Under the pieces are notes generated by a model, which saw nothing but the letters and a program-made list of their open reading frames with translations, did no database searches and was not told the origin of the DNA. A stretch of DNA of 64,000 nt, from assembly GCA_002269645.1 (NCBI GenBank), contig NIVC01002295.1, positions 1 through 64,000 on the forward strand, given 5' to 3'. Positions 45,711 through 64,000 of the stretch are shown here, piece by piece. Each line of letters starts with the position of its first letter. Positions within the stretch are counted from its first letter, which is position 1. The stretch is from Macrostomum lignano (Eukaryota). The translations under genes and the position numbers were made by a program.

Positions 45711-46129
45711 AAATCGTCGGGAGTCAAAAGTCGCTTGCAGTAGATATAATCTGGCAGTCATATTGTGGCAAGCCAGTAGTCAGAAACCCTTCAAGTAGTG
45801 ATAGAGGGAGGGAGAACTTTTGAAGCTTCCACCGAGGCATAGCTCCGCTCTCTCCTCACCAGCCTAAGTCAGGGCCTTGTGAGGCAAATGGCATCATCCC
45901 ACAGGTGTGAATTGCATCACTGGAGCTGAGATTTGAGAAAAATTGACCACTGGTTTCGGGACAAACTTCAACAACAAGTAGGAGCAACATGTCCCTCCCC
46001 TTTCACTCCCGCTGTCACGCAGCACAAAAGCTAAGCAATGTCATTAATTATTCAGTAATGGGTGAAACAACCAGAAGTGCCGTCATTCGTCGTGTATCTG
46101 GGGCGTAGCCAGGGTCTTCCATTGGGGAG

Positions 46130-49103: not shown

Positions 49104-52100
49104 ATGATTGCGCTACTGCTGCTACTGATGCTGGCACCAGCTGGCCTCGCTGCTGCTCAACCAGCCAACGGAACTGACCAGTTTGGCAACTTGTGAGTGA
49201 CGAATGAACGAGAGATTTATTGCAGTCTGATTTCTACTTTATCTGCTGAAAATCATATTCTACCCTCTCCCTCCTTGCTCCCTTTCCCGCTCCCTTCCCC
49301 AATCCCTTCCCGCTCCCTTCCCCCATCCATTCCCCGCTCCTTCCCCGCTCCCTTCCCCGCTCCCTTCCCTGATCCCTTCCCCGCTCCTTCCCCGCTCCTT
49401 CCCCGCTCCCTTCCCCGCTCCCTTCCCTGATCCCTTCCCTGATCCCTTCCCCATCCATTCCCCGCTCCTTCCCCGCTCCTTCCCCGCTCCCTTCCCCGCT
49501 TCCTTCCCCGCTCCCTTCCCTGATCCCTTCCCCCATCCATTCCCCGCTCCTTCCCCGCTCCCTTCCTTGATCCCTTGCCTTATCCCTTCCCCCATCCATT
49601 CCCCGCTCCTTCCCCGCTCCCTTCCCCGCTCCCTTCCCTGATCCCTTCCCCGCTCCCTTCCCCGCTCCCTTCCCTGATCCCTTCCCTGATCTCTTCCCCC
49701 ATCCATTCCCCGCTCCTTCCCCGCTCCCTTCCCCGCTCCCTTCCCTGATCCCTTCCCTGATCTCTTCCCCCATCCATTCCCCGCTCCTTCCCCGCTCCCT
49801 TCCCCGCTCCCTTCCCTGATCCCTTCCCCGCTCCTTCCCCGCTCCTTCCCCGCTCCCTTCCCTGATCCCTTCCCTGATCCCTTCCCCCATCCATTCCCCG
49901 CTCCTTCCCCGCTCCCTTCCCCGCTCCCTTCCCTGATCCCTTCCCCGCTCCTTCCCCGCTCCTTCCCCGCTCCCTTCCCCGCTCCCTTCCCTGATCCCTT
50001 CCCTGATCCCTTCCCCCATCCATTCCCCGCTCCTTCCCCGCTCCTTCCCCGCTCCCTTCACCGCTTCCTTCCCTGATCCCTTCCCTGATCCCTTCCCCCA
50101 TCCATTCCCCGCTCCTTCCCCGCTCCCTTCCTTGATCCCTTGCCTTATCCCTTCCCCCATCCATTCCCCGCTCCTTCCCCGCTCCCTTCCCCGCTCCCTT
50201 CCCTGATCCCTTCCCCGCTCCCTTCCCCGCTCCCTTCCCTGATCCCTTCCCTGATCCCTTCCCCCATCCATTCCCCGCTCCTTCCCCGCTCCCTTACTCG
50301 CTCCCTTCCTTTTCCCTATCCTCCACATCCGTCTTTTCTCCTCCTCCAGGCGTCAGTATTCTTTGGGCTCAAATCCCCAATGTGAATTGATGCACTCGCA
50401 GAACCCGCAAAATAAAATCTAAAACCGCTCACCAAATGGCCCTAGGCACTACCTGGTACTGGCGCCCAAATTCGGTCGGCTGGGGTCCACTTACACGGTC
50501 AGCTGCTCTCTGCCTGGCAAGACCATCGTCTCTGCTAGAGCTCAAATTTCCACCGTGAAAATGGCCGAGGGAGCTCGGAATCTCAGCGCCGAGGATTACT
50601 GGACCAGCACCGGCGGTGGCCACAAGACTGGAGACACAGGTGAGAGAAATTTCAATGTGAAAGATTTGGGAGTATTTTTACTCCTGGATAGAACTGCTGA
50701 CAGAAGATCCGGACTTGTAGATGAGACGGTGTGTGAGTAAGCAACCCTGTGGGTGAGCAGCTCTGTGAGTAAGCAACCCTGTGGGTGAGCAGCTCTGTGA
50801 GTAAGCAACCCTGTGGGTGAGCAGCTCTGTGGGTGAGCAGCTCTGTGAGTAAGCAACCCTGTGGGTGAGCAGCTCTGTGAGTAAGCAACCCTGTGGGTGA
50901 GCAGCTCTGTGAGTAAGCAACCCTGTGGGTGAGCAGCTCTGTGGGTGAGCAGCTCTGTGAGTAAGCAACCCTGTGGGTGAGCAGCTCTGTGAGTAAGCAA
51001 CCCTGTGGGTGAGCAGCTCTGTGAGTAAGCAACCCTGTGGTTGAGCAGCTCTGTGGGTGAGCAGCTCTGTGGGTAAGCAGCCCTGTGGGTGAGCAGCCCT
51101 GTGGGTGAGCAGCCCTGTGGGTGAGCAGCCCTGTGGGTGAGCAGCCCTGTGGGTGAGCAGCCCTGTGGGTGAGCAGCCCTGTGGGTGAGCAGCCCTGTGG
51201 GTGAGCAGCCCTGTGGGTGAGCAGCCCTGTGAGTGAGCAGCCCTGTGGGTGAGCAGCCCTGAGGGTAAGAAGCCCAATTCAAGCTTACGAAAAGGAAATC
51301 CCTCTAATTATTATTTTTAGATGCGCTAACCCTGTCACTGCCATTGGAAAATGACGTGAGAATTTTGTTTATTTTTGCTATCTTTCGTTCCAAGTTCCAC
51401 CCAAAGATAATAAAATATACTGTATGCACGAGATAATATAAATGTACAGTTAGTACATATCCTTGGTCTTTCGAAACTTAAAGCTTTTGGGATTCATAAA
51501 TTTCCGATATCTCTTTCTCAATTATTCTCAAGCATTGTCACTGAGACCAACTAAAATAGCAAAAAATAATCTAAGTCATTTTTCTGTGTCTCTGGGGAAT
51601 CACAACTATCACGTTTATAGTGCTATGGGAATTAAATCTATCAGTATAGGGATTAAATCTGTATAGGGATTAAATCATACGGATCACGTTTATACTGATC
51701 TGAGACAACTTTGCGCGTTTTTGTCCCTCAGGACTCGATTGACTTGTCAGGCAGCTACAAACTTAGCGTGGAACTGACCAGCTCAACCGGTTCCGTCTAT
51801 CGCAACGAGACCAACGTCAACCTCCAGGGCCCCAGCTTTCTGACCTTCGTGCAGACCGACAAGGCCCTGTACCAGCCTGGGCAGACTGTCAAGTTTCGCG
51901 TCTTCTGTCTGGACAGCTCGCTTCGACCTGTGGCCGCCAACTTCACTGCGCTTATTAAGGCGAGTATAAATGCTTTCAGATGTCAATAGATGCTTTCAGA
52001 TGTCTATAGATGCTTTCAGATGTCTATAGATGCTTTCAGATGTCTATAGATGCTTTCAGATGTCTATAGATGCTTTCAGATGTCTATAGATGCTTTCAGA

Positions 52101-55100
52101 TGTCAATAGATGCTTTCAGATGTCAATAGATGCTTTCAGATGTCTATAGATGATTTCAGATGTCTATAGATGCTTTCAGATGTCAATAGATGCTTTCAGG
52201 TGTCAATAGATGCTTTCAGATGTCTATAGATGCTTTCAGGTGTCAATAGATGCTTTCAGATGTCTATAGATGCTTTCAGATGTCAATTGATGCTTTCAGA
52301 TGTCAACTGATGCTTTCAGATGTCAATAGAAGCTTTCAGATCTCTATAGAAGCTTTCAGATCTCTATAGAAGCTTTCAGATCTCTATAGATGCTTTCAGA
52401 TCTGTATAGATCCGCTAAGCATCACCGCCACCCCTCTTTCCAGGACGCCCAGGGCAACCTGGTCGATCGACTGCGCCACGAGGTGCCTTCGGACCTGGCC
52501 GGAAACGTCTCCCAGACGGTGATGCGAGGCCAGTTCCAGCTGGCCGACCCGCCGAACCTGGGCACCTGGCGAATCGAAGTCAGCGGCAGCCGGGGCCAGA
52601 GCGAGTCCAAGAGCTTCTCAGTTGAGCGCTACACTTTGCCCAAGTTCACCGTGGAGGTGCACACGCCGGACTTTGTTTACGTCGATGACGACAGCTTCAA
52701 CGTAACGGTGGAGGTGCGGTACACCTACAAGCAGGCGGTGCAGGGCCTGCTAGTGGCTGACATCGGACCGTGGAACCCCTGCCGAACCTGCAAGAACAAC
52801 TACGACATGGTGAAGAGGTTCAGCGCCAGTCTGGCTGGCGAAAACAGCGATGGTCGAGCCGTGTTCACCTTCCCGATGGCCGAGTGGCGGGCCGAGCTGG
52901 CTGAGAGGATCAACAGAACTGGCCTGACCTTCAACATGCGGGCCAACTTTGCGGTGAATGTGAATGTGCGATTCACGGAGCGCTTTAGCGGTGAGCGGCC
53001 TCTTTATTGCGTTTATTGTCTTTACTGTCTGTCGGACGCATGTTTTATTTTCTTGCCTTCCTTAGCAGTATCATCGGTATGTTGCGTCTGTAGTGTCCGG
53101 ATCTGTCTGTCTGTATCCTGCTGTAGTCCTTTTTTCTATCTGTTTTGTCTACTGTCTGTTGTGTCTTCTGTCTGTTGTGTCTTCTGTCTGTTTTGTTGTG
53201 TCTTCTGTCTGTTGTGTCTTAATCTGTCTGTTGTGTCTATCTGTCTGTTGTGTCTTCTGTCTGTTGTGTCTTCTATCTGTTGTGTCTTAATCTGTCTGTT
53301 GTGTCTTAATCTGTCTGTTGTGTCTTTATCTGTCTGTTGTGTCTTTATCTGTCTGTTGTGTCTTAATCTGCCTGTTGTGTCTTAATCTGTCTTTTGTGTC
53401 TTTATCTGTCTGTTGTGCCTTTATCTGCCTGTTGTGTCTTAATCTGCCTGTTGTGTCTTAATCTGTCTGTTGTGTCTTTATCTGTCTGTTGTGTCTTTAT
53501 CTGTCTGTTGTGTCTTCTGTCTGTTGTGTCTTTATCTGTCTGTTATGTCTTAATCTGTCTGTTGTGTCTTAACCTGTCTGTTGTGTCTTAATTTGTCTGT
53601 TGTGTCTTAATCTGTCTGTTGTGTCTTCTGTCTGTTGTGTTGTGTCTTCTGTCTGTTGTCTTAATCTGTCTGTTGTGTCTTAATCTGTCTGTTGTGTCTT
53701 AATCTGTCTGTTATGTCTTAATCTGTCTGTTGTGTCTTAATCTGTCTGTTGTGTCTTAACCTGTCTGTTGTGTCTTAATCTGTCTGTTGTGTCTTTATCT
53801 GTCTGTTGTGTCTTCTGTCTGTTGTGTCTTAATCTGTCTGTTATGTCTTAATCTGTCTGTTATGTCTTAATCTGTCTGTTGTGTCTTAATCTGTCTGTTG
53901 TGTCAATCTGTCTGTTGTGTCTTAATCTGTCTGTTATGTCTTAATCTGTCTGTTATGTCTTAATCTGTCTGCTATGTCTTAATCTGTCTGTTGTGTCAAT
54001 CTGTCTGTTGTGTCTTAATCTGTCTGTTGTGTCTTGTATCTATTGTGTCTTCTGTCTGTTGTGTCTTAATCTGTCTGTTGTGTCTTGTATCTGTTGTGTC
54101 TTCTGTCTTTTGTGTCTTAATCTGTCTGTTGTGTCTTTATCTGTCTGTTGTGCCTTTATCTGCCTGTTGTGTCTTAATCTGTCTGTTGTTTCTTTATCTG
54201 TCTGTTGTGTCTTAATCTGTCTGTTATGTCTTAATCTGTCTGTTATGTCTTAATCTGTCTGTTATGTTTTAATCTGTCTGTTATGTCTTAATCTGTCTGT
54301 TGTGTCAATCTGTCTGTTGTGTCTTAATCTGTCTGTTGTGTCTTGTATCTGTTGTGTCTTCTGTCTGTTGTGTCTTAATCTGCCTGTTGTGTCTTAATCT
54401 GTCTTTTGTGTCTTTATCTGTCTGTTGTGCCTTTATCTGCCTGTTGTGTCTTAATCTGCCTGTTGTGTCTTAATCTGTCTGTTGTGTCTTTATCTGTCTG
54501 TTGTGTCTTTATCTGTCTGTTGTGTCTTCTTTCTGTTGTGTCTTTATCTGTCTGTTATGTCTTAATCTGTCTGTTGTGTCTTAACCTGTCTGTTGTGTCT
54601 TAATTTGTCTGTTGTGTCTTAATCTGTCTGTTGTGTCTTCTGTCTGTTGTGTTGTGTCTTCTGTCAGTTGTCTTAATCTGTCTGTTGTGTCTTAATCTGT
54701 CTGTTGTCTTCTGTCTGTTGTGTCTTAATCTGTCTGTTGTGTCTTAATCTGTCTGTTGTGTCTTAATCTGTCTGTTGTGTCTTAACCTGTCTGTTGTGTC
54801 TTAATTTGTCTGTTGTGTCTTAATCTGTCTGTTGTGTCTTCTGTCTGTTGTGTCTTCTGTCTGTTGTGTCTTCTATCTGTTGTGCCTTAATCTGTCTGTT
54901 GTGTCTTTATCTGTCTGTAGTTTCTGCATCAGGCTGTATCTGTCTGTAGTTTCTGTATCAGTCTGTAGTTTCTGTATCAGTCTGTAGTTTCTGTATCAGT
55001 CTGTAGTTTCTGTATCAGTCTGTAGTTTCTGTATCAGTCTGTAGTTTCTGTATCAGTCTGTATCTACCTATAGTGCTTGTACCTATTGATGGTGCTATAC

Positions 55101-57214
55101 GCTTGAATAGTTTACATGCTAAAATAAAAAAATGCTTTTTTTCAGAAATCGTGAAAGCTGTTGAAAAATCTTTCACCATCTACGGCAAAAAGTACAAGCT
55201 GGTTATGGAGACCCCGGACTTGCCCTACTTCCTGCCCGGTTTCAAAGTGCCGGTGCACGTGAGCTTATGCTTGTTGTGTTGCAACTCAGAACGACTAAGT
55301 ACTGAATTATGAGCACTAATTTATGATCCCCTATGGGGAATTTTCCCTCCCGCCGGCAGTTGCTGCTTAAACGGCCAAATGACGTCATCTTCACTGCCAA
55401 CTCGACCGACGACATCCGCCTGTGGATGGAATTCAGCCACCGCGGCAAGCCAAAGAGCCTCGAACTGTACAGGGGCCGCCTGGTGCAGTCTTCCAGTCAG
55501 ACTGGGCTCAGCCTCCTGGTCACTGTGCCCGAATATGTCGACTTTGTCACCGTCACTTTTATGGCAAGCCTTTTCGGCTCATGACCTGCGCCCCTACTCT
55601 TCGCTCCCCTCTTCCTCCTGTCCCCTCTTCTTCCGCTCCCCTCTTCCTCCGCTCCCCTCTTCCTCCGCTCCCCTCTTCCTCCGCTCCCCTCTTCCTCCGC
55701 TCCTCTTCCTCCGCTCCCCTCTTCCTCCGCTCCCCTCTTCCTCCGCTCCCCTCTTCCTCCGCTCCCCTCTTCCTCCGCTCCCCTCTTCTTCCGCTCCCCT
55801 CTTCCTCCGCTCCCCTCTTCCTCCGCTCCCCTCTTCCTCCTGTCCCCTCTTCCTCCTCTCTCCTATTCCCCCGTTCCTCTTCCTCCGCCCCTCTTCCTCC
55901 AATCTCCACTTCCTCCAATCTTTACTTCCTCCAATCTCTACTTCCTCCACCCTCTCTTCTGCCTGTACTTTGGCATTAATAATATCAATAATAACAGCAA
56001 TAGCAATACAATAACCATTTCCAGGCGGAGCTGCTAGACGCGCAGAAAATTCGGTCATCTTTTAGTCTGAAGCCGTACTTAGCAAACACGGACGATTTTG
56101 TTACGACAAGCGTGCTATCTGCTTCTAATGGTGTCCATGTGAGATATTGCTGCTATTATTGAATCTGTGCATTACCATTTATTGTCAACAAAACTTCTAT
56201 TAAAAATTTTGCAGGTGCAAGTCAACCAATCCAGTGGAATCAAACTGGCTTACTCTGCTGTAAGTAGTATCGTCCATTTCTATACAAAAGACTGTCTTTC
56301 CGTCCACTGGGCCAATTCAACCTGCAGATTATTTCCCAAGACCAAATTCGACTTTGGAGTAAGCTGGACAAGTCCGACGAGACGCTGACAGAACTGAACT
56401 CGAAGCTGCTCGACGATTTCATACCGACATTGTCGGCTGTGACTTTTGGCATCGTTGAAACCGGCGAGATTGTGGCGTCCTATGATGACTTTTCTCTGCC
56501 GAATGTCACGGGAAAGGTGAGGGCAGCTTTCTGACCCTAATTGCTGACCGCACTGGGTGGATGGATGTAGAGCTGATCTCATTTAATGCTGGGGTGTCAG
56601 CAGGGATGATCGCACTGGTTGCCCGGGGAGTCAGCAGGGATGATCGCACTGGTTGCTCGGGGAGTCAGCAGGGATGATCGCACTGGGTGGCCGGGGAGTC
56701 AGCAGGGATGATCGCACTGGGTGGCCGGGGAGTCAGCAGGGATGATCGCACTGGGTGGCCGGGGAGTCAGCAGGGATGATCGCACTGGTTGCTCGGGGAG
56801 TCAGCAGGGATGATCGCACTGGTTGCTCGGGGAGTCAGCAGGGATGATCGCACTGGGTGGCCGGGGAGTCAGCAGGGATGATCGCACTGGGTGGCCGGGG
56901 AGTCAGCAGGGATGATCGCACTGGGTGGCCGGGGAGTCAGCAGGGATGATCGCACTGGGTGGCCGGGGAGTCAGCAGGGATGATCGCACTGGGTGGCCGG
57001 GGAGTCAGCAGGGATGATCGCACTGGTTGCCCGGGGAGTCAGCAGGGATGATCGCACTGGGTGGCCGGGGAGTCAGCAGGGATGATCGCACTGGGTGGCC
57101 GGGGAGTCAGCAGGGATGCTCGCACTGTGCCGCTCGCCCGCCCGCCCGCAGCTGAAGCTGAGCAGCAACCTGACGGACAACACCGGGGAGCCGCAGGCGG
57201 GCGTGCGCATCTGA
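49104..57214 (+). CDS. Alpha-2-macroglobulin/TEP/CD109-family gene, N-terminal part (signal peptide, MG1 to start of MG6). Exons 49104-49192, 50446-about 50728, 51732-51959, 52444-52990, 55146-55258, 55360-55563, 56025-56138, 56215-56516, 57152-57214 (cut off)
   Basis: Signal peptide MIALLLLLMLAPAGLAAA; HYLVLAPK; FVQTDKALYQPGQTVKFRV; DAQGNLV; GTWRIEV; FSVERYTLPKFTVEV; YFLPG; GEIVASY. Splice phases agree. One frameshift near 56289; the 3' end of exon 2 is uncertain. Confidence 0.9.
49262..50330. repeat. Pyrimidine-rich 11-12-bp unit repeat (CCCCGCTCCCTT / CCCTGATCCCTT / CCCCATCCATT) in TEP intron 1
   Basis: Direct read; G-run-rich on the - strand. Confidence 0.95.
50735..51265. repeat. 15-bp minisatellite (GTGGGTGAGCAGCCCT-type / GTGAGTAAGCAACCCT-type) at the start of TEP intron 2
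   Basis: About 33 units read directly. Confidence 0.95.
51970..52410. repeat. 20-bp minisatellite (AGATGCTTTCAGATGTCTAT)n in TEP intron 3
   Basis: About 22 copies read directly. Confidence 0.95.
53130..55070. repeat. About 19-bp (TCTGTCTGTTGTGTCTTAA)n array followed by (TCTGTAGTTTCTGTATCAG)n in TEP intron 4
   Basis: Direct read; explains the Cys/Leu/Val-rich ORFs at 53093-54603. Confidence 0.95.
55600..55900. repeat. 16-bp (CCGCTCCCCTCTTCCT)n in TEP intron 6
   Basis: Direct read. Confidence 0.93.
56590..57125. repeat. 34-bp (CCGGGGAGTCAGCAGGGATGATCGCACTGGGTGG)n in TEP intron 8
   Basis: About 16 copies; period 34 measured at 56881/56915. Confidence 0.95.
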
Positions 57215-57859
57215 AATATTTTAAAATATATGTTATTGTTCTTCTTCTGGTCTCTCACTTCTATGGCTCTTGTTCTACTTCAAATATCAATGTGAGAGCC
57301 AAATAACTGAGGCGGCGGATTCAACTGACTTTTCCTGATGATGCAAACACTTGATGGTAACTTACAGACCGTTGTATTTGATGGTCACAATCTCGAGATG
57401 TTTTCTCACAAAATATAATGTCTAAGGTGGAATTCCAAATAAGAAGCTCGTTCGATTTAAGTCACAAGGTGTTTCTAGTTGTTCGGGTGAACCGAAGGTT
57501 CAGTCTATTGTGAAACGTGGATTGAGTGTTGGTTTGGCTTTAGTAAGTCGACTTATAAGTTTTGGTGTTTGGGTTGAGACCCTAACTGTGTCAATCAAAA
57601 TAGTCAAACGAGGTAAGCTAGGAGAATGGCGAAGGAGAGGCAAGGGCGAGGAGAGGCGGAGCGAGCAAAAGGCGAGCTTCTTGCTTGGTTAACATGAGCT
57701 TTTATAGTACTTTTCAGTCTTGATCGCATTGGATGGTACATAACTGCTTTTCATTGGTTGAGGTTGGGGTCGTGTCCTCAGCTTTTGCTATTTGGAGCGC
57801 ATTCATTGGTTAAAATACATTCAATCTGGATGGGAGCTTTCTAGAGCCAAAATGTATCA
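57212..57859 (-). promoter_or_regulatory. Candidate 3' LTR of about 650 bp with U3 promoter
   Basis: TG...CA ends; purine-rich tract GAAAAATAGAGCGAATGAAG immediately upstream on the - strand (57860-57879); three CCAAT boxes (about 57730, 57755, 57806) and TATAAAAG (about 57700-57707). The inner boundary cannot be confirmed without the 5' LTR. Confidence 0.5.
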
Positions 57860-58506
57860 CTTCATTCGCTCTATTTTTCGGGGAAGCGAGGCCCTCCGAG
57901 CGCATAAAAACAGAAAAAGTATAGTAGGGGGTTAAAATTGATAAAATTGCAGAAAAAGATAACGCATTGTAGTGAACGAGAAAAGTTGTCGCAGAAAAAA
58001 AATAGTGCGCAGTGAATAATATTAGCAAAAATGTTTGAGTAAAAGGGAACCAATTTAAGCAAGGTAACATAGGTTAAAGTTCAACATCAGTTTAAATAGC
58101 GAAAGAAGGGATAGCGCAGAGGGCCTTTAGTTAGGCGAAGCTAAACTAGCTAAGCAAGGATGGAATAAAACACAGCGAGGGTAACCAAAAAATTGATAAA
58201 ATAGGTGTACAGAGCAAAATGGAGGTTTAGCGACGCAAGCTTAAAGCGAAAACGCGTTGAATTTAAAAGAGGGTAATAAAAATCATTGTACAGCGAAAGT
58301 TGGGGGGGGGGGTTAGCGAGGAACCGCTCAGCTAATAAATCATGTACAAAGTAGAGGTTAAAATTTTTTAAATGGGGAACGAAGGACTGTAAAAATGCCA
58401 GGAAAAGTGTACGGTCAAAAAGGGTATATAACGCGAAACTGAAAACGAGGAGAGTTAGGTGACTTTTAACCGAAAGTTAATAGTTAATTAAGTCTTTACT
58501 TTAGTC

Positions 58507-58785
58507 ATGAGTACCATGAAAAATTTAAGGTTTTTACTAGGCGACCTGGCAAAGCAGTCGCAGGACCACTGGGACCGAGCCGACAGTCGCTGGGCGTCCA
58601 CCGTCGCGTGCTTGGTGGTGCTAGGAGCGCTGGTGCTGGTGTTGTTGTTGTGGCAGTGCTCAGCCTGCTGCCGGTGCTGCTGTTGCTGTCGGCGTAGTTG
58701 TTGTCGGTCGGGCGCGCCTGAGGCATCGGCTGCTGCGGCTGATGAAGAAGCGCCGCCGGCCGAGTCGGCAGAAGCGGCCGTGTAA
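58507..58785 (+). CDS. 92-aa single-pass membrane micro-protein with a Cys-rich juxtamembrane cluster, antisense within the Gypsy 3' region
   Basis: ATG preceded by acceptor-like CTTTACTTTAG; TM segment TVACLVVLGALVLVLLLW, then CSACCRCCCCCRRSCCR and an acidic/Ala tail; GC-rich island in A-rich DNA. Confidence 0.55.
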   Translation: MSTMKNLRFLLGDLAKQSQDHWDRADSRWASTVACLVVLGALVLVLLLWQCSACCRCCCCCRRSCCRSGAPEASAAAADEEAPPAESAEAAV

Positions 58786-59345: not shown

Positions 59346-60302
59346 TTAAAATAGTGAGCGATGATGGTGAATCAAGTCATAAAAAAGAGCGTATGCCAGT
59401 CGAGCAAAATTAATATTAGGATCAGAAGGCGGAGAATGTTGAATACGCTTGATGGAGAAGGTATGAAGAGTGGCGTACTCTGGCAAGGTGTTAGGATAGC
59501 CAACAAGAGCATTTCGTATACGGTGAATATCGTATAAATATCGACGAAGGGGAGGACAAGAGAAAGGAAAAATAGTATGGGCAACTACCGAGCGAGAATA
59601 AAAATCGATAATTATAAAAGCAAAGTTTCTTGAACGCGTGGAGAGAATGAAAACAGCGTGGGTGAAGAAAAAATTGTGCGGATACAGACGATTTAGCGTG
59701 CGTATGATAGCGCTCTTAGTAGCACGAGGAAAAAACGGAGGAAAAATTTGATAAACATAAGGGGCGAGAGAATCGAAGGAGGTTAAATAATTTTGTAGCG
59801 TAGAAGTTAACTGTTGCGCCGAAAGATTAGCAGCATCATGGCGGAATTGTTGCCATGGGTAGCGCAGAGAGGAAAGCAACAGAGGCCAAGTGTCTTGGTT
59901 AAAGCGCATGCATGGTTGAGGGAGAGTAGAAGCAGAGAGTTGAAAGAAATCGTCGATAGACATTTTAGGAGAAAAAAGAAAATGTAGGATTGGTACGAAG
60001 CTGCGGTTGAGAACGTCAGTCATAGTGGGAGAAAAGTTCTGTATACGTGGTCGTGAGTGAGTACGACGCAGCACACCAAATAGACTAATTCGCAGAACGC
60101 GGAGCATCTTAGGATAAAAGCGATGGCAGCGGATAACATAAAAACGAGAGAAGAAAGCGGAGGCCATGCGTAGCCGTTGGGGTTCACCAATAGTTTCAGA
60201 ATAAAATATTGCTTCAGTGAACCAAGCAACAACGGTTGCGAGGCAAATAAGATCATGATTTAACTGTGGTCGAATATCCATCGGTTGCGGAAATGGATCC
60301 AT
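59346..60302 (-). CDS. Gypsy ORF3 (318 aa from the first ATG), env position; putative catalytically inactive Ulp1/SENP (C48)-fold protein
   Basis: More than 370 open codons in AT-rich DNA; strong splice acceptor (TTTTCTCTTTTCCCTCTTTACATTGCAG, AG at 60365-60364) about 60 nt upstream of the ATG. The fold call is a by-eye alignment only. Confidence 0.65.
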   Translation of the reverse strand: MDPFPQPMDIRPQLNHDLICLATVVAWFTEAIFYSETIGEPQRLRMASAFFSRFYVIRCHRFYPKMLRVLRISLFGVLRRTHSRPRIQNFSPTMTDVLNRSFVPILHFLFSPKMSIDDFFQLSASTLPQPCMRFNQDTWPLLLSSLRYPWQQFRHDAANLSAQQLTSTLQNYLTSFDSLAPYVYQIFPPFFPRATKSAIIRTLNRLYPHNFFFTHAVFILSTRSRNFAFIIIDFYSRSVVAHTIFPFSCPPLRRYLYDIHRIRNALVGYPNTLPEYATLHTFSIKRIQHSPPSDPNINFARLAYALFYDLIHHHRSLF

Positions 60303-60586
60303 AAGAGAAAGGAAAAAGAAGAAAAGCAATAGATACACAAAATATTGTTTTAGCGTGTGAGCTCTGCAATGTAAAGAGGGAAAAGAGAAAATTTTTGTAG
60401 CTTTTTGTTGATAAAACGGAAAATAAACGTTCACTTGTGTCAGTTCGTTAATACTCGTAGTCACGTAAAGAGTCGCAATGCAGGGAGAGAGAGCAAAAGC
60501 AGAAGAGAAAGAAAGGAAGAGAAAGCAATATTATCAGTCAAGGAAAAGAAAGGAGAAAAGAAGTTTAGAAGGTTTTTTTTGATCAT

Positions 60587-63500
60587 TCACGACTTCTTGT
60601 TCTTCGATCGTAGGTTGTAGCCATGCGTCTGTGGCTGAACTGGTGGCTCATCAGTGGACGTGGTTTGCAGCGCGATGGACTTGCTCAATGGCGGCCGATG
60701 GTTGTGGTGGACCTGAATGTCATCAGTTGTGAACTCAGGTAGGTGACTAGGTCCAGCGCTGAGTCCATCTCCAGGCCATGGTTTCAGCTTGGAGGCATGC
60801 ACCACGATTGGTCGTTCGCTTGGTCGGTTGACGTCAGAAATCAGTGCGTTCTGATCGGAGAGCCATGCTAGTAGACGCATTGGGCCACGATAAGGATTGG
60901 AGAATTTTGTCTCCTTTGTTGCTGAGACATCCAAGTAGCATCGTGCACCTGGGCGTATGTAGCGGCGGTTGATCTTCTTGTCAGAGTTTTCAGCGCGCTG
61001 TTCAGCTGAGTTGTACAGAAGCTCCTTGGCGACTTCTCTGGCAAGCAAAATAGCTGAACAGGTCAAATTGACTGGTTTAATAACGTCCATGTATGCAGTT
61101 GTCTGGTGTTCCATGATCCGTGCGTTGGGTGGCAGGAAGTCTCGAGCGAAGAACAAGTAGAATGGTGATTCATTCATCGTTGAGTGTGCGGCGGTATTGA
61201 TTGCTAGTGTCACCGCAGGTAGGAAGTCAATCCAGAGATCTGGTTTGTCATGGACAAAGGCCGTAAGGGTTTGCTTCAGTGTCTTGTGTGCGCGTTCGAC
61301 GAAGTTGCTGGATGGTTGGTACACCGAGGTGTAGATTAGATGGATTCCAAGGGCACCCATAAACTCTCGAAATTCTTGCGAGATGAATTGGGGTCCGTTA
61401 TCTGAGATGATGTGTGCTGGTAGTCCTGCGAAGGCGAACACACGGTTGAAGAGACTGTTGCAGATGGTTGCAGAAGTTGTCTCAGTTAGCGGGATTGTGA
61501 ACAGGAATTTGCTAACGCCGCATTGGGCTGTGAGTATGTACTTGTAGACGTCGCGGCCGTGTGAAGCTGGTGGCAGTGGACCTACAAGGTCGATAGCCAA
61601 ATGAGAGAAAACCTCGTTGAATTTGACGGCTTTGTGCAGCGGTCGCAGTCGAGGTGCTGTTTTCGCTTTGTGGCAGATTTCGCAGTTGTTAATGAAATTG
61701 AAGACGTCTTGCCGTAGTGTAGGCCAGTAGTAGAAATGACTGATTTTGTCTGCTGTCTTTTGGTGACCTAGATGACCACCAAGGGCTGTCGAGTGGTTAC
61801 TTGTCAAAAGAGCTTCACGGTAGCGTGTTGGTATCACGAGGCGGCTTCGTCCTTCGTCATCTTCAAAGTATAGAGTGTTTCCGTCCAGGAAATAACGTGC
61901 CAGGTGTCGGCGAACATATTGTTGGTCTTTCTTGGACAGCTCGTGAGTGGGTGATTTTTCCGATAGAAGTGCTTTGATTGTTGACAGTAATGGGTCTTGA
62001 TCAATGGCATCCTGCAGTCCGTTGAATGTTGACAGCGATTGTATCTGACAGACTTTGGGGATGCGTGAAAGGCAGTCCGCTACTACATTTGATTTGCCTT
62101 TCACATAGTTGAGAGTGAAGTTGTAATCTTGTAGCGCTAGAATCCACTTCTGAAGTCGTTTTGAAATTGGCTGCTTGTCACTGAATAGACTCTTGAGTGG
62201 CTGGTGATCAGTGAAGACGTGGAACTGTTGATAAGAAGCGTAGAGGAACACGTGTAGCTTCTTTATTGCCCAATAGATGGCGTATGCTTCGCGTTCGAAT
62301 CGGTGGATAGCGTTGTTCAATTGAGCTTAACGTCTTAGAGATGTAGGCAACCGGGCGTTGGTGGTTGCTGTCGTCTAGCTGTGAGAGTACTGCTCCAATG
62401 GCGGTATCCGAGGCATCAGTGTGAAGGAAGTACGGTTTTCGCGGATTTGGATGAACCAGTAGTATATCCGTAGAGAGAAGTTGTTTCAGCTTTTCAAAGG
62501 CTGTTTGCGGCGTTTGTCCAGACGAATTTGTTGGGTTTTGAAGTGTTTTTGATAATACTCAGAAGTGGTTGTACTACTCGTGAGTAGCCAGCAATGTGCG
62601 TTCGGTAGAAATTTGCAAGTCCAAGGAAAGATTGTAGTTGTTTTACCGTTTGAGGCACAGGGAAGGTCTTGATTTTCTCGATGAGGCTGGGTGCGGGTCT
62701 AATGCCTTGAGCAGAAACCACAAATCCAAGATATTGTACCTCTGTTTTAGCAAAGATGCATTTTCGTAGTGAAATTCGCAATCCATGATGTCGTAACTTT
62801 TGGAAGAAGCGTTCGATTTCTTTGAGCATGCCGGTGAAGTCTTCGGCGATGAGCATGACGTCATCCAAGTAGGCAATCTGATTTGGAGAGTCAGCTGTTA
62901 ACAATGCTACAAGACGGCACATTAAGCTAGGACTGGACTTGAGTCCTTGAGGTAGTCGATTGAATTCCCAAAGTAGGCCGTTGGGTGCAATGAACGCAGT
63001 GTATTTTGTGCTTTCTGGATCGATCCGAACTTGGTAGAAAGCATCTGCTAGGTCACAGAGTGTGTACAGTTTAGCGTTTTTCAATCGATGTAGCAAATCC
63101 GGAATCTTAGGAGGTCGGATGCTAGGAGCACGAATTAGCTTGTTCAGTTTTCGGTAATCCGTCACGAGTCTTAGTTGTCGGCGACCTTGAGCGTCGAGCG
63201 TCTTCTTTTCCACGAGAAGACATGGACTTGAGTATTCAGATTCACTCGGACTGATGATTCCTTTTGACGGAAGTTTTCGATAGTTCGTCAAACCGTTCTT
63301 GTAGTCATGAGCGATTGGATAGGGTCTGGACGTGACTGGCTCAGAGTGTGGGTGTAGATGCAGGTGAGCCGTGTATTGGGTAGAGCAACCCATGTCGGTT
63401 GGCAGTAGTGCCAAGACGTCACGGTACTTGTTCATTAGAGTAACTAATTGTTCACTCTGCTCGTTGAGAGGTGCTGGTTGGCTTGCTTGAGTTGAGTACG

Positions 63501-63998
63501 AATCATGTCAGTCGTTGGTGTTCTTGCTGCAGCGTGCGTAGATTGTTGATTTGAGCTGCTGGTCGTACGATGTTGTAGTCAGACATGTTAGCCAGATTTC
63601 CAATGACTTGTTGAGGATGCAAGGTTTGCGTTGTCAGCGACGGTTGGCAATTTCCACAGTGATAGTTTGTCCGTCCGGGTTGACAGAAACAAGGCAAGTT
63701 GGTATCATCAACTGGTGTTTCTGGATCGTGTGGTCCTTAGGGACGAACAGGACAGGAATCGTTGGCTCATGTCGAGAAGAGAGTTTCAGCGTGACTTGGT
63801 GGCGTTGTCTGTGGTGGTAACTCTAGCTTGTTTTGCATCACCGCAGAGGTTTCTTGCAACTGTTGGATGGAGTTGAGCATCGTGCAAATTGCTCATTGCC
63901 AGCTTAGCTGTCGCTTTCGAGTAGTCGAATTGTAGTGGTATTCCCAGTGACTTAAAGGTTTCTACTCCTAAGAGCAAATCATAGTCAGCGTCGGGGTG
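60587..63998 (-). CDS. Gypsy pol (protease C-terminus, RT, RNase H, integrase) with several frameshifts
   Basis: DYDLLLGVE; SEYSSPCLLVEKK; LRLVTDYRKLN; DLADAFYQ; RLPQGLKSSP; AYLDDV; FLGLANFYR; HTDASDTAIGAVL; EREAYAI; FTDHQPL; H..GHLG..KT...CEIC; LAIDLVGP; ISDNGPQF; NFVERAH; GPY/F-like PYRGPM. Frameshifts at about 63500, 63280 (compensated), 62505 and 62310. Confidence 0.95.
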
Positions 63999-64000
63999 TC

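Follow-up and report, generated by a model that had tools for sequence, protein, structure and literature searches.

A selected accessory gene beyond pol in a flatworm Gypsy element of probable gag-env-pol layout, with a candidate catalytically dead Ulp1/SENP-type domain

Ulp1 domains have been described in several kinds of mobile element. They occur in Ginger1 and Mutator transposases (PMC2836005), in Kaonashi/VANC MULEs and, fused to an anti-silencing protein, in Vandal (PMC13317346), and in the NeSL and Utopia non-LTR elements (PMC4640811). As presented in these sources, the domains are recognisable by PF02902, are mostly fused, and reside in DNA transposons or non-LTR elements. The Macrostomum lignano element described here resembles them as a mobile element bearing a clan CE domain, in this case a predicted one. 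It differs in that the open reading frame concerned, ORF3, stands alone as a gene within an LTR element, is undetected by Pfam and has no catalytic triad.

The LTR retrotransposons of bdelloid rotifers carry non-env ORF3 cargo in the form of family-specific captured genes past pol, as is the case here, but the GDSL and DEDDy ORF3s described in that report retain their catalytic residues, unlike the present ORF3 (PMC5408684). Planarian Burro has captured genes past pol, an env located in the gag-pol interval, and domains related to ubiquitin, one of them SUMO-like (PMC6431247). SENP-like cargo is not named in the available text of either report. The present family is also like the GAG-ENV-POL errantiviruses with HSV/gB-type ENV of Platyhelminthes, Nematoda and Bryozoa in being a Gypsy LTR element with an env-like region between gag and pol. 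Unlike those elements as they are described, it has an extra gene past pol, and the terms 'SUMO', 'RING' and 'additional ORF' do not occur in the main text of the report (PMC13524379). The sole entry for this flatworm species in the same source has an LTR of ~860 bp, as against 654 bp in the ORF3 family. Ulp1 cargo in other mobile elements, non-env ORF3s in rotifer LTR elements and ubiquitin-related domains in Burro are therefore already known. No SENP-like or pseudo-protease cargo was found in any LTR element in the literature covered, with subscription journals and Repbase reports outside its scope. Anti-silencing proteins of animal retrotransposons are, to our knowledge, barely known, and a dead SENP fold in ORF3, if truly present, would tie LTR elements directly to SUMO-dependent silencing.

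The window, by which we mean the whole stretch of 64,000 nucleotides that was analysed, terminates within the 3' portion of a minus-strand Gypsy LTR element (Table 1). Along that strand pol is followed by a 223-nt pyrimidine-rich gap, ORF3, a 1.5-kb 3' region and the LTR. The gag gene, which encodes a zinc knuckle, and the env-like region lie outside the window, beyond its pol end. The Pfam domain order of pol is PR-RT-RH-IN, the LTRs run from TG to CA and there is a TGG primer site, all as expected of Ty3/Gypsy. The LTR pairs of two copies are 100% and 98.8% identical, with element spans of 16.9 and 12.9 kb, and 4-bp target-site duplications were present in both copies examined; the family is young. 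The copy in the window has no 5' LTR and its polyprotein frame is broken. That the host is a flatworm is also shown by its SENP, for which a protein labelled Macrostomum lignano was a 96% match. The insertion is adjoined by exons of a host gene of the thioester/alpha-2-macroglobulin type (MG2 and MG3 domains; window 51700-56530), and a 20-bp tandem array begins at about position 46000 of the window.

Table 1. Features of the element in the window
Feature	Position	Strand	Remarks
ORF3, accessory gene	59346..60302	-	318 aa, basic, pI 10.1
ORF3 residues 135-318	59349..59900	-	likely of clan CE fold (Ulp1/SENP-like) but lacking the catalytic His, Asp and Cys; the evidence is weak, with no single line significant
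ORF3 residues 1-134	59901..60302	-	predicted all-helical, no family match (model, Pfam)
Candidate splice acceptor, pyrimidine tract + CAG	60364..60390	-	61 nt before ATG, no ATG between
pol (protease, RT, RNase H, integrase)	60587..64000	-	single-base indels break the frame in the window copy
3' LTR	57212..57865	-	654 bp, TG...CA; donor-like GTAAGT ~500 nt inside
Antisense small ORF	58507..58785	+	92 aa; hydrophobic stretch, then Cys/Arg string

ORF3 is present as predicted, on the same strand as pol, with its ATG at 60302, 285 nt past the pol stop at 60587, and its own stop at 59346. Arg (29) and Lys (4) outnumber the 17 acidic residues of its product. A search of the genome recovered at least 18 near-full copies (95-100%) and at least three fragments (82-83%). 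The whole frame is preserved without gaps in 11 of the 18 near-full copies; three of the others have one indel near the end and four have internal frameshifts. Pairwise pN/pS among the 11 intact copies ranges from 0.10 to 0.48, and comparison of ORF3 with the most distant gap-free copy gave a dN of 0.027, a dS of 0.109 and a dN/dS of 0.24 (binomial p 1.4e-5). Shifted-frame controls gave 0.71 and 2.27. One antisense frame also gave 0.25, as expected because its third positions coincide with those of ORF3. Against a diverged fragment the ratio was 0.35 over 157 codons. Segregating sites are distributed 23/16/40 over the three codon positions, and there are four gap columns in the 957 nt of ORF3, whereas the flanks have 123 over 223 nt and 115 over 396 nt. 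ORF3 (46 synonymous, 51 replacement changes) is under weaker constraint than the integrase (69 and 36). The original prediction looked for a frame conserved across genome copies with dN/dS below 1, and this is what was found. We are in little doubt that ORF3 is a real accessory gene maintained by selection, and as a small, stand-alone gene it should be easily expressed and tested.

ORF3 had been placed in the env position while being said to lack env hallmarks. The lack of hallmarks was confirmed, there being no signal peptide, no transmembrane segment and a maximal 19-residue hydropathy of 1.43. The positional assignment fails, as the env-like region of the family sits between gag and pol, and ORF3 is for this reason a further gene and not env. 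The gag-env-pol order is known in flatworms, nematodes and bryozoans (PMC13524379). Inspection by eye of the interval between gag and protease showed a stretch resembling a signal peptide, parts rich in Cys and in Thr, furin-like sites and a stretch resembling a transmembrane segment. The corresponding region of a sister family matched the Pfam profiles PF24664 (Monjiviricetes fusion; E 5e-4) and PF00606 (herpes gB; E 0.0099), both under the cut-off. The two env-like fragments of the present family had no Pfam match, and their likeness to the region of the sister family was judged by eye. With these features located between gag and pol and absent from ORF3, the latter was rejected as env.

Neither tblastn nor a listing of ORFs found ORF3 in two sister families whose integrases are 60-66% identical to that of the ORF3 family. 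Both branch outside the ORF3 family in an integrase tree (midpoint root, no clade test); one 83% relative is truncated by the end of its contig. Because both sister families are without ORF3 and branch outside, gain of ORF3 in this Gypsy family appears the simpler reading, and a SENP-like gene would likely have been captured by this one family after its split from the sister families. Capture from the MULE Ulp1 of the genome or from other SENP paralogues is unsupported, as tblastn gave a sizeable alignment only with SENP1-like loci (E 0.06-0.5). No homologue of ORF3 outside this genome was found by a word-index search or among PDB sequences and viral and metagenome contigs.

The structure models of ORF3 are of low confidence, with pLDDT values of 36.8 and 38.0 (full-length and domain models). 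Foldseek searches of the PDB, in which the score includes amino acids and no match reached E 0.001 or better, returned clan CE chains as the first 11 matches to the domain model and as 26 of the 44 matches listed (best E 0.097, TM 0.32), and as 14 of the 49 listed for the full-length model. VIA superimposed residues 186-303 of the model on SENP1 residues 492-610 at a constant offset (Z 3.9, rmsd 4.8, 101 residues), and a second VIA analysis with the domain model gave clan CE chains only Z 2.6-3.0. In the ESM Atlas, at a recognition value of 1829, below the 2300 mark, unnamed giant-virus clusters lead (0.90-0.91), and all three named family sets (0.88-0.90) are C48 (17% of members), ElaD-C48 and poxvirus C57, the last a core protease that also belongs to clan CE. 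The order of elements in the low-confidence model, helix-helix-three strands-helix-helix, fits clan CE. A BFVD fold search gave nothing significant (best E 0.067). ORF3 is like the catalytic domain of SENP1, SENP2 and Ulp1 (PF02902; PDB 2xre, 2hkp) in its predicted element order and in being colinear over ~120-160 residues, and unlike it in having only 8-16% identity in the structure searches and no His-Asp-Cys, WLND or QQxNxxDCG. Because two blind searches, Atlas and Foldseek, returned the family that had been named beforehand, the C-terminal domain as modelled probably has a clan CE (Ulp1/SENP-type) fold. The prediction of such a fold is thus backed by the leading Foldseek matches and the Atlas sets, neither of them significant, but not by profile methods.

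Residues 135-318 matched no Pfam family at E 10, PF02902 included, and NCBIfam, a PDB sequence search and HMMER were blank for ORF3. A home-made HMM built from 123 SENP domains did not detect ORF3, and HHalign gave a probability of 0.1-1% for its likeness to SENP. With a home-made Ulp1 profile the MULE Ulp1 of the same genome scored z ~9 and ORF3 1.7-1.8. The pairwise score of ORF3 with the host SENP was reached by six of 2000 shuffles. Averaged over 41 SENP domains, the score was reached by 17 of 400 shuffles for ORF3 and by 167 of 400 for its reversed sequence. Gapped local profile scores were equalled by 14-88 of 150 shuffles, and in a glocal test reversed ORF3 tied with ORF3 (21-24 versus 16-28 of 500). 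Overall the shuffle-test p for likeness to SENP spans 0.003-0.6. The SENP motifs originally read by eye are present in the order given, but a score as high as that of the ungapped 36-aa block among them arises by chance (in 339-371 of 3000 shuffles). In the best local alignments the SENP catalytic His falls on ORF3 residue 226 for 80 of the 123 SENP domains; these domains are kin, and their agreement does not therefore amount to 123 independent tests. Pairwise, profile and VIA alignments give one colinear SENP register over 130-160 residues, in which the aromatic residue that follows the His and an FxxFF-like motif are kept; in the pairwise and profile alignments it is the register originally read by eye.

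This register leaves ORF3 without the catalytic His, Asp and Cys, as had been predicted. Residue 226 is N in nine of 17 copies and S in eight, residue 243 is T and residue 295 is P or L. More broadly, the catalytic Cys maps to residues 295-299 (P/L, N, I, N and F), ORF3 is without any Cys past residue 249, and neither the oxyanion Gln nor the QQxNxxDCG motif was found in it. ORF3, if it is a clan CE member, cannot on this alignment work as a SENP protease, because the three residues are absent, and it is not a member of the C48 enzymes. The WLND motif of Ulp1 and SENP1, in the SUMO-binding cleft, is a SUMO contact that includes acidic contacts. It is invariant in all six SENPs compared, whereas the corresponding helix start of ORF3 has no Trp and no acidic residues. 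This loss weakens the idea of a SUMO decoy and argues against canonical SUMO binding.

We tentatively propose that the last 180 residues of ORF3, a selected, non-env accessory gene of a young gag-env-pol Gypsy family, form a dead clan CE fold that would bind rather than cut. In Drosophila, transposon silencing depends on SUMO (PMC10363806). ORF3 might bind host proteins modified by SUMO or ubiquitin-like proteins and so hide them from silencing or restriction factors that read SUMO, with the helical N-terminal region supplying target or location. Such a role as a SUMO/ubiquitin-like binder is possible but doubtful, and action as a SUMO-binding trap is the weakest step of the proposal. Nearly as likely is that the domain is derived from clan CE and dead, has no SUMO or ubiquitin binding, and acts as a scaffold for another partner, such as a host protein, nucleic acid or the particle. 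Loss of both WLND and the catalytic residues, the strongly basic character of the protein and its divergence past profile detection all suit a scaffold; the aromatic residue and FxxFF-like motif retained in register, and the ubiquitin-system cargo of neighbouring families, count against it.

A chance likeness, with ORF3 having another fold (for example RWD/E2-like) or originating from the T-rich 3' region and serving an unrelated accessory role, is unlikely on balance. RWD-type domains came first in a wide VIA search (Z 5.0, 72 aligned), among the best 50 matches of which there was no clan CE chain, but this Z lies below the tool background of 7-8. The T content of ORF3 is 0.36, like that of the non-coding 3' region, compared with 0.22 in pol; no homologue was found among 1.84 billion representatives, the single match being repeat-like and false; and no sequence test is significant. 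Against chance stand the return of a family named beforehand by two blind searches and the single colinear register. An active protease or isopeptidase with relocated catalytic residues is hardly credible: His215, His242 and Cys249 do lie within the domain, and Ulp1 domains on transposons are usually intact, as in the MULE of this genome, but the host SENP residue aligned with Cys249 is a Cys without a catalytic role, and copies of ORF3 differ from one another at the His and Cys positions.

The pyrimidine tract and CAG on which spliced expression of ORF3 had been predicted are present in all 18 copies, but the tract alone is weak evidence for splicing, because three other acceptor-like sites occur in the same pyrimidine-rich 3' region. 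The distance from candidate acceptor to ATG is 61-67 nt across copies, with no upstream ATG and no fixed frame, and therefore no leader peptide is needed. The donor-like GTAAGT is the sole match in the LTR and leader of the one copy scanned. Contigs from four of 24 listed runs, putatively RNA, were used to check for transcripts, and those of all four runs cover ORF3, one only partly. The predicted junction ending at 60363 is not among the seven joints listed in these runs, for which the compared stretch included the LTR with the donor, and one contig reads through the candidate acceptor unspliced. The chances seem even that ORF3 expression would rely on a subgenomic RNA in which splicing joins the LTR donor to the CAG at 60364. 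Spliced-leader trans-splicing occurs in flatworms, and this or an internal promoter could serve as an alternative.

Other accessory genes and mobile elements were observed in this genome. The antisense small ORF (86-113 aa) has an open frame in 15 of 17 copies, and because both sister families also have it (67-84 aa) it is older than ORF3. By eye it resembles sORF2/FAST-like proteins, which are apparently not antisense in the source that describes them (PMC11952523). A second accessory ORF of ~268 aa in the interval between the 5' LTR and gag (L054:3340-4143, + strand; dN/dS 0.49-0.58) had no Pfam match, has a SOCS/BC-box-like motif by eye only, and is deleted from the window copy. Distant Gypsy families (L083-L088; pol ~34% identical) have one to three RING-finger ORFs past pol (best Pfam E 4.8e-7) and share a short hairpin-like motif upstream. 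In a mosaic locus (L066-L067, G000:C87) RING ORFs occur together with the 5' accessory ORF, a truncated start of gag and a fragment of diverged ORF3 (84% DNA identity), and accessory genes therefore appear to be shuffled between families. More speculatively, and in our estimate improbably, an enveloped LTR element would have captured a SUMO protease that, now a pseudo-enzyme, binds and blocks SUMOylated silencing factors, within a ubiquitin-system toolkit that includes RING ligases and a SOCS-box-like gene and is exchanged among flatworm Gypsy families as counter-defence cargo.

A Mutator-like transposase (L118, L120) carries a Ulp1 domain that keeps its His, Asp and Cys, followed by a PHD-like finger. 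Seven intronless SUMO-like copies (L121-L127) lie on four contigs, with an inverted pair on three of them. At three further loci (L079, L080, L082) a cut Gypsy pol is joined to deoxynucleoside-kinase-like and family-B-polymerase-like ORFs that look Polinton-like by eye.
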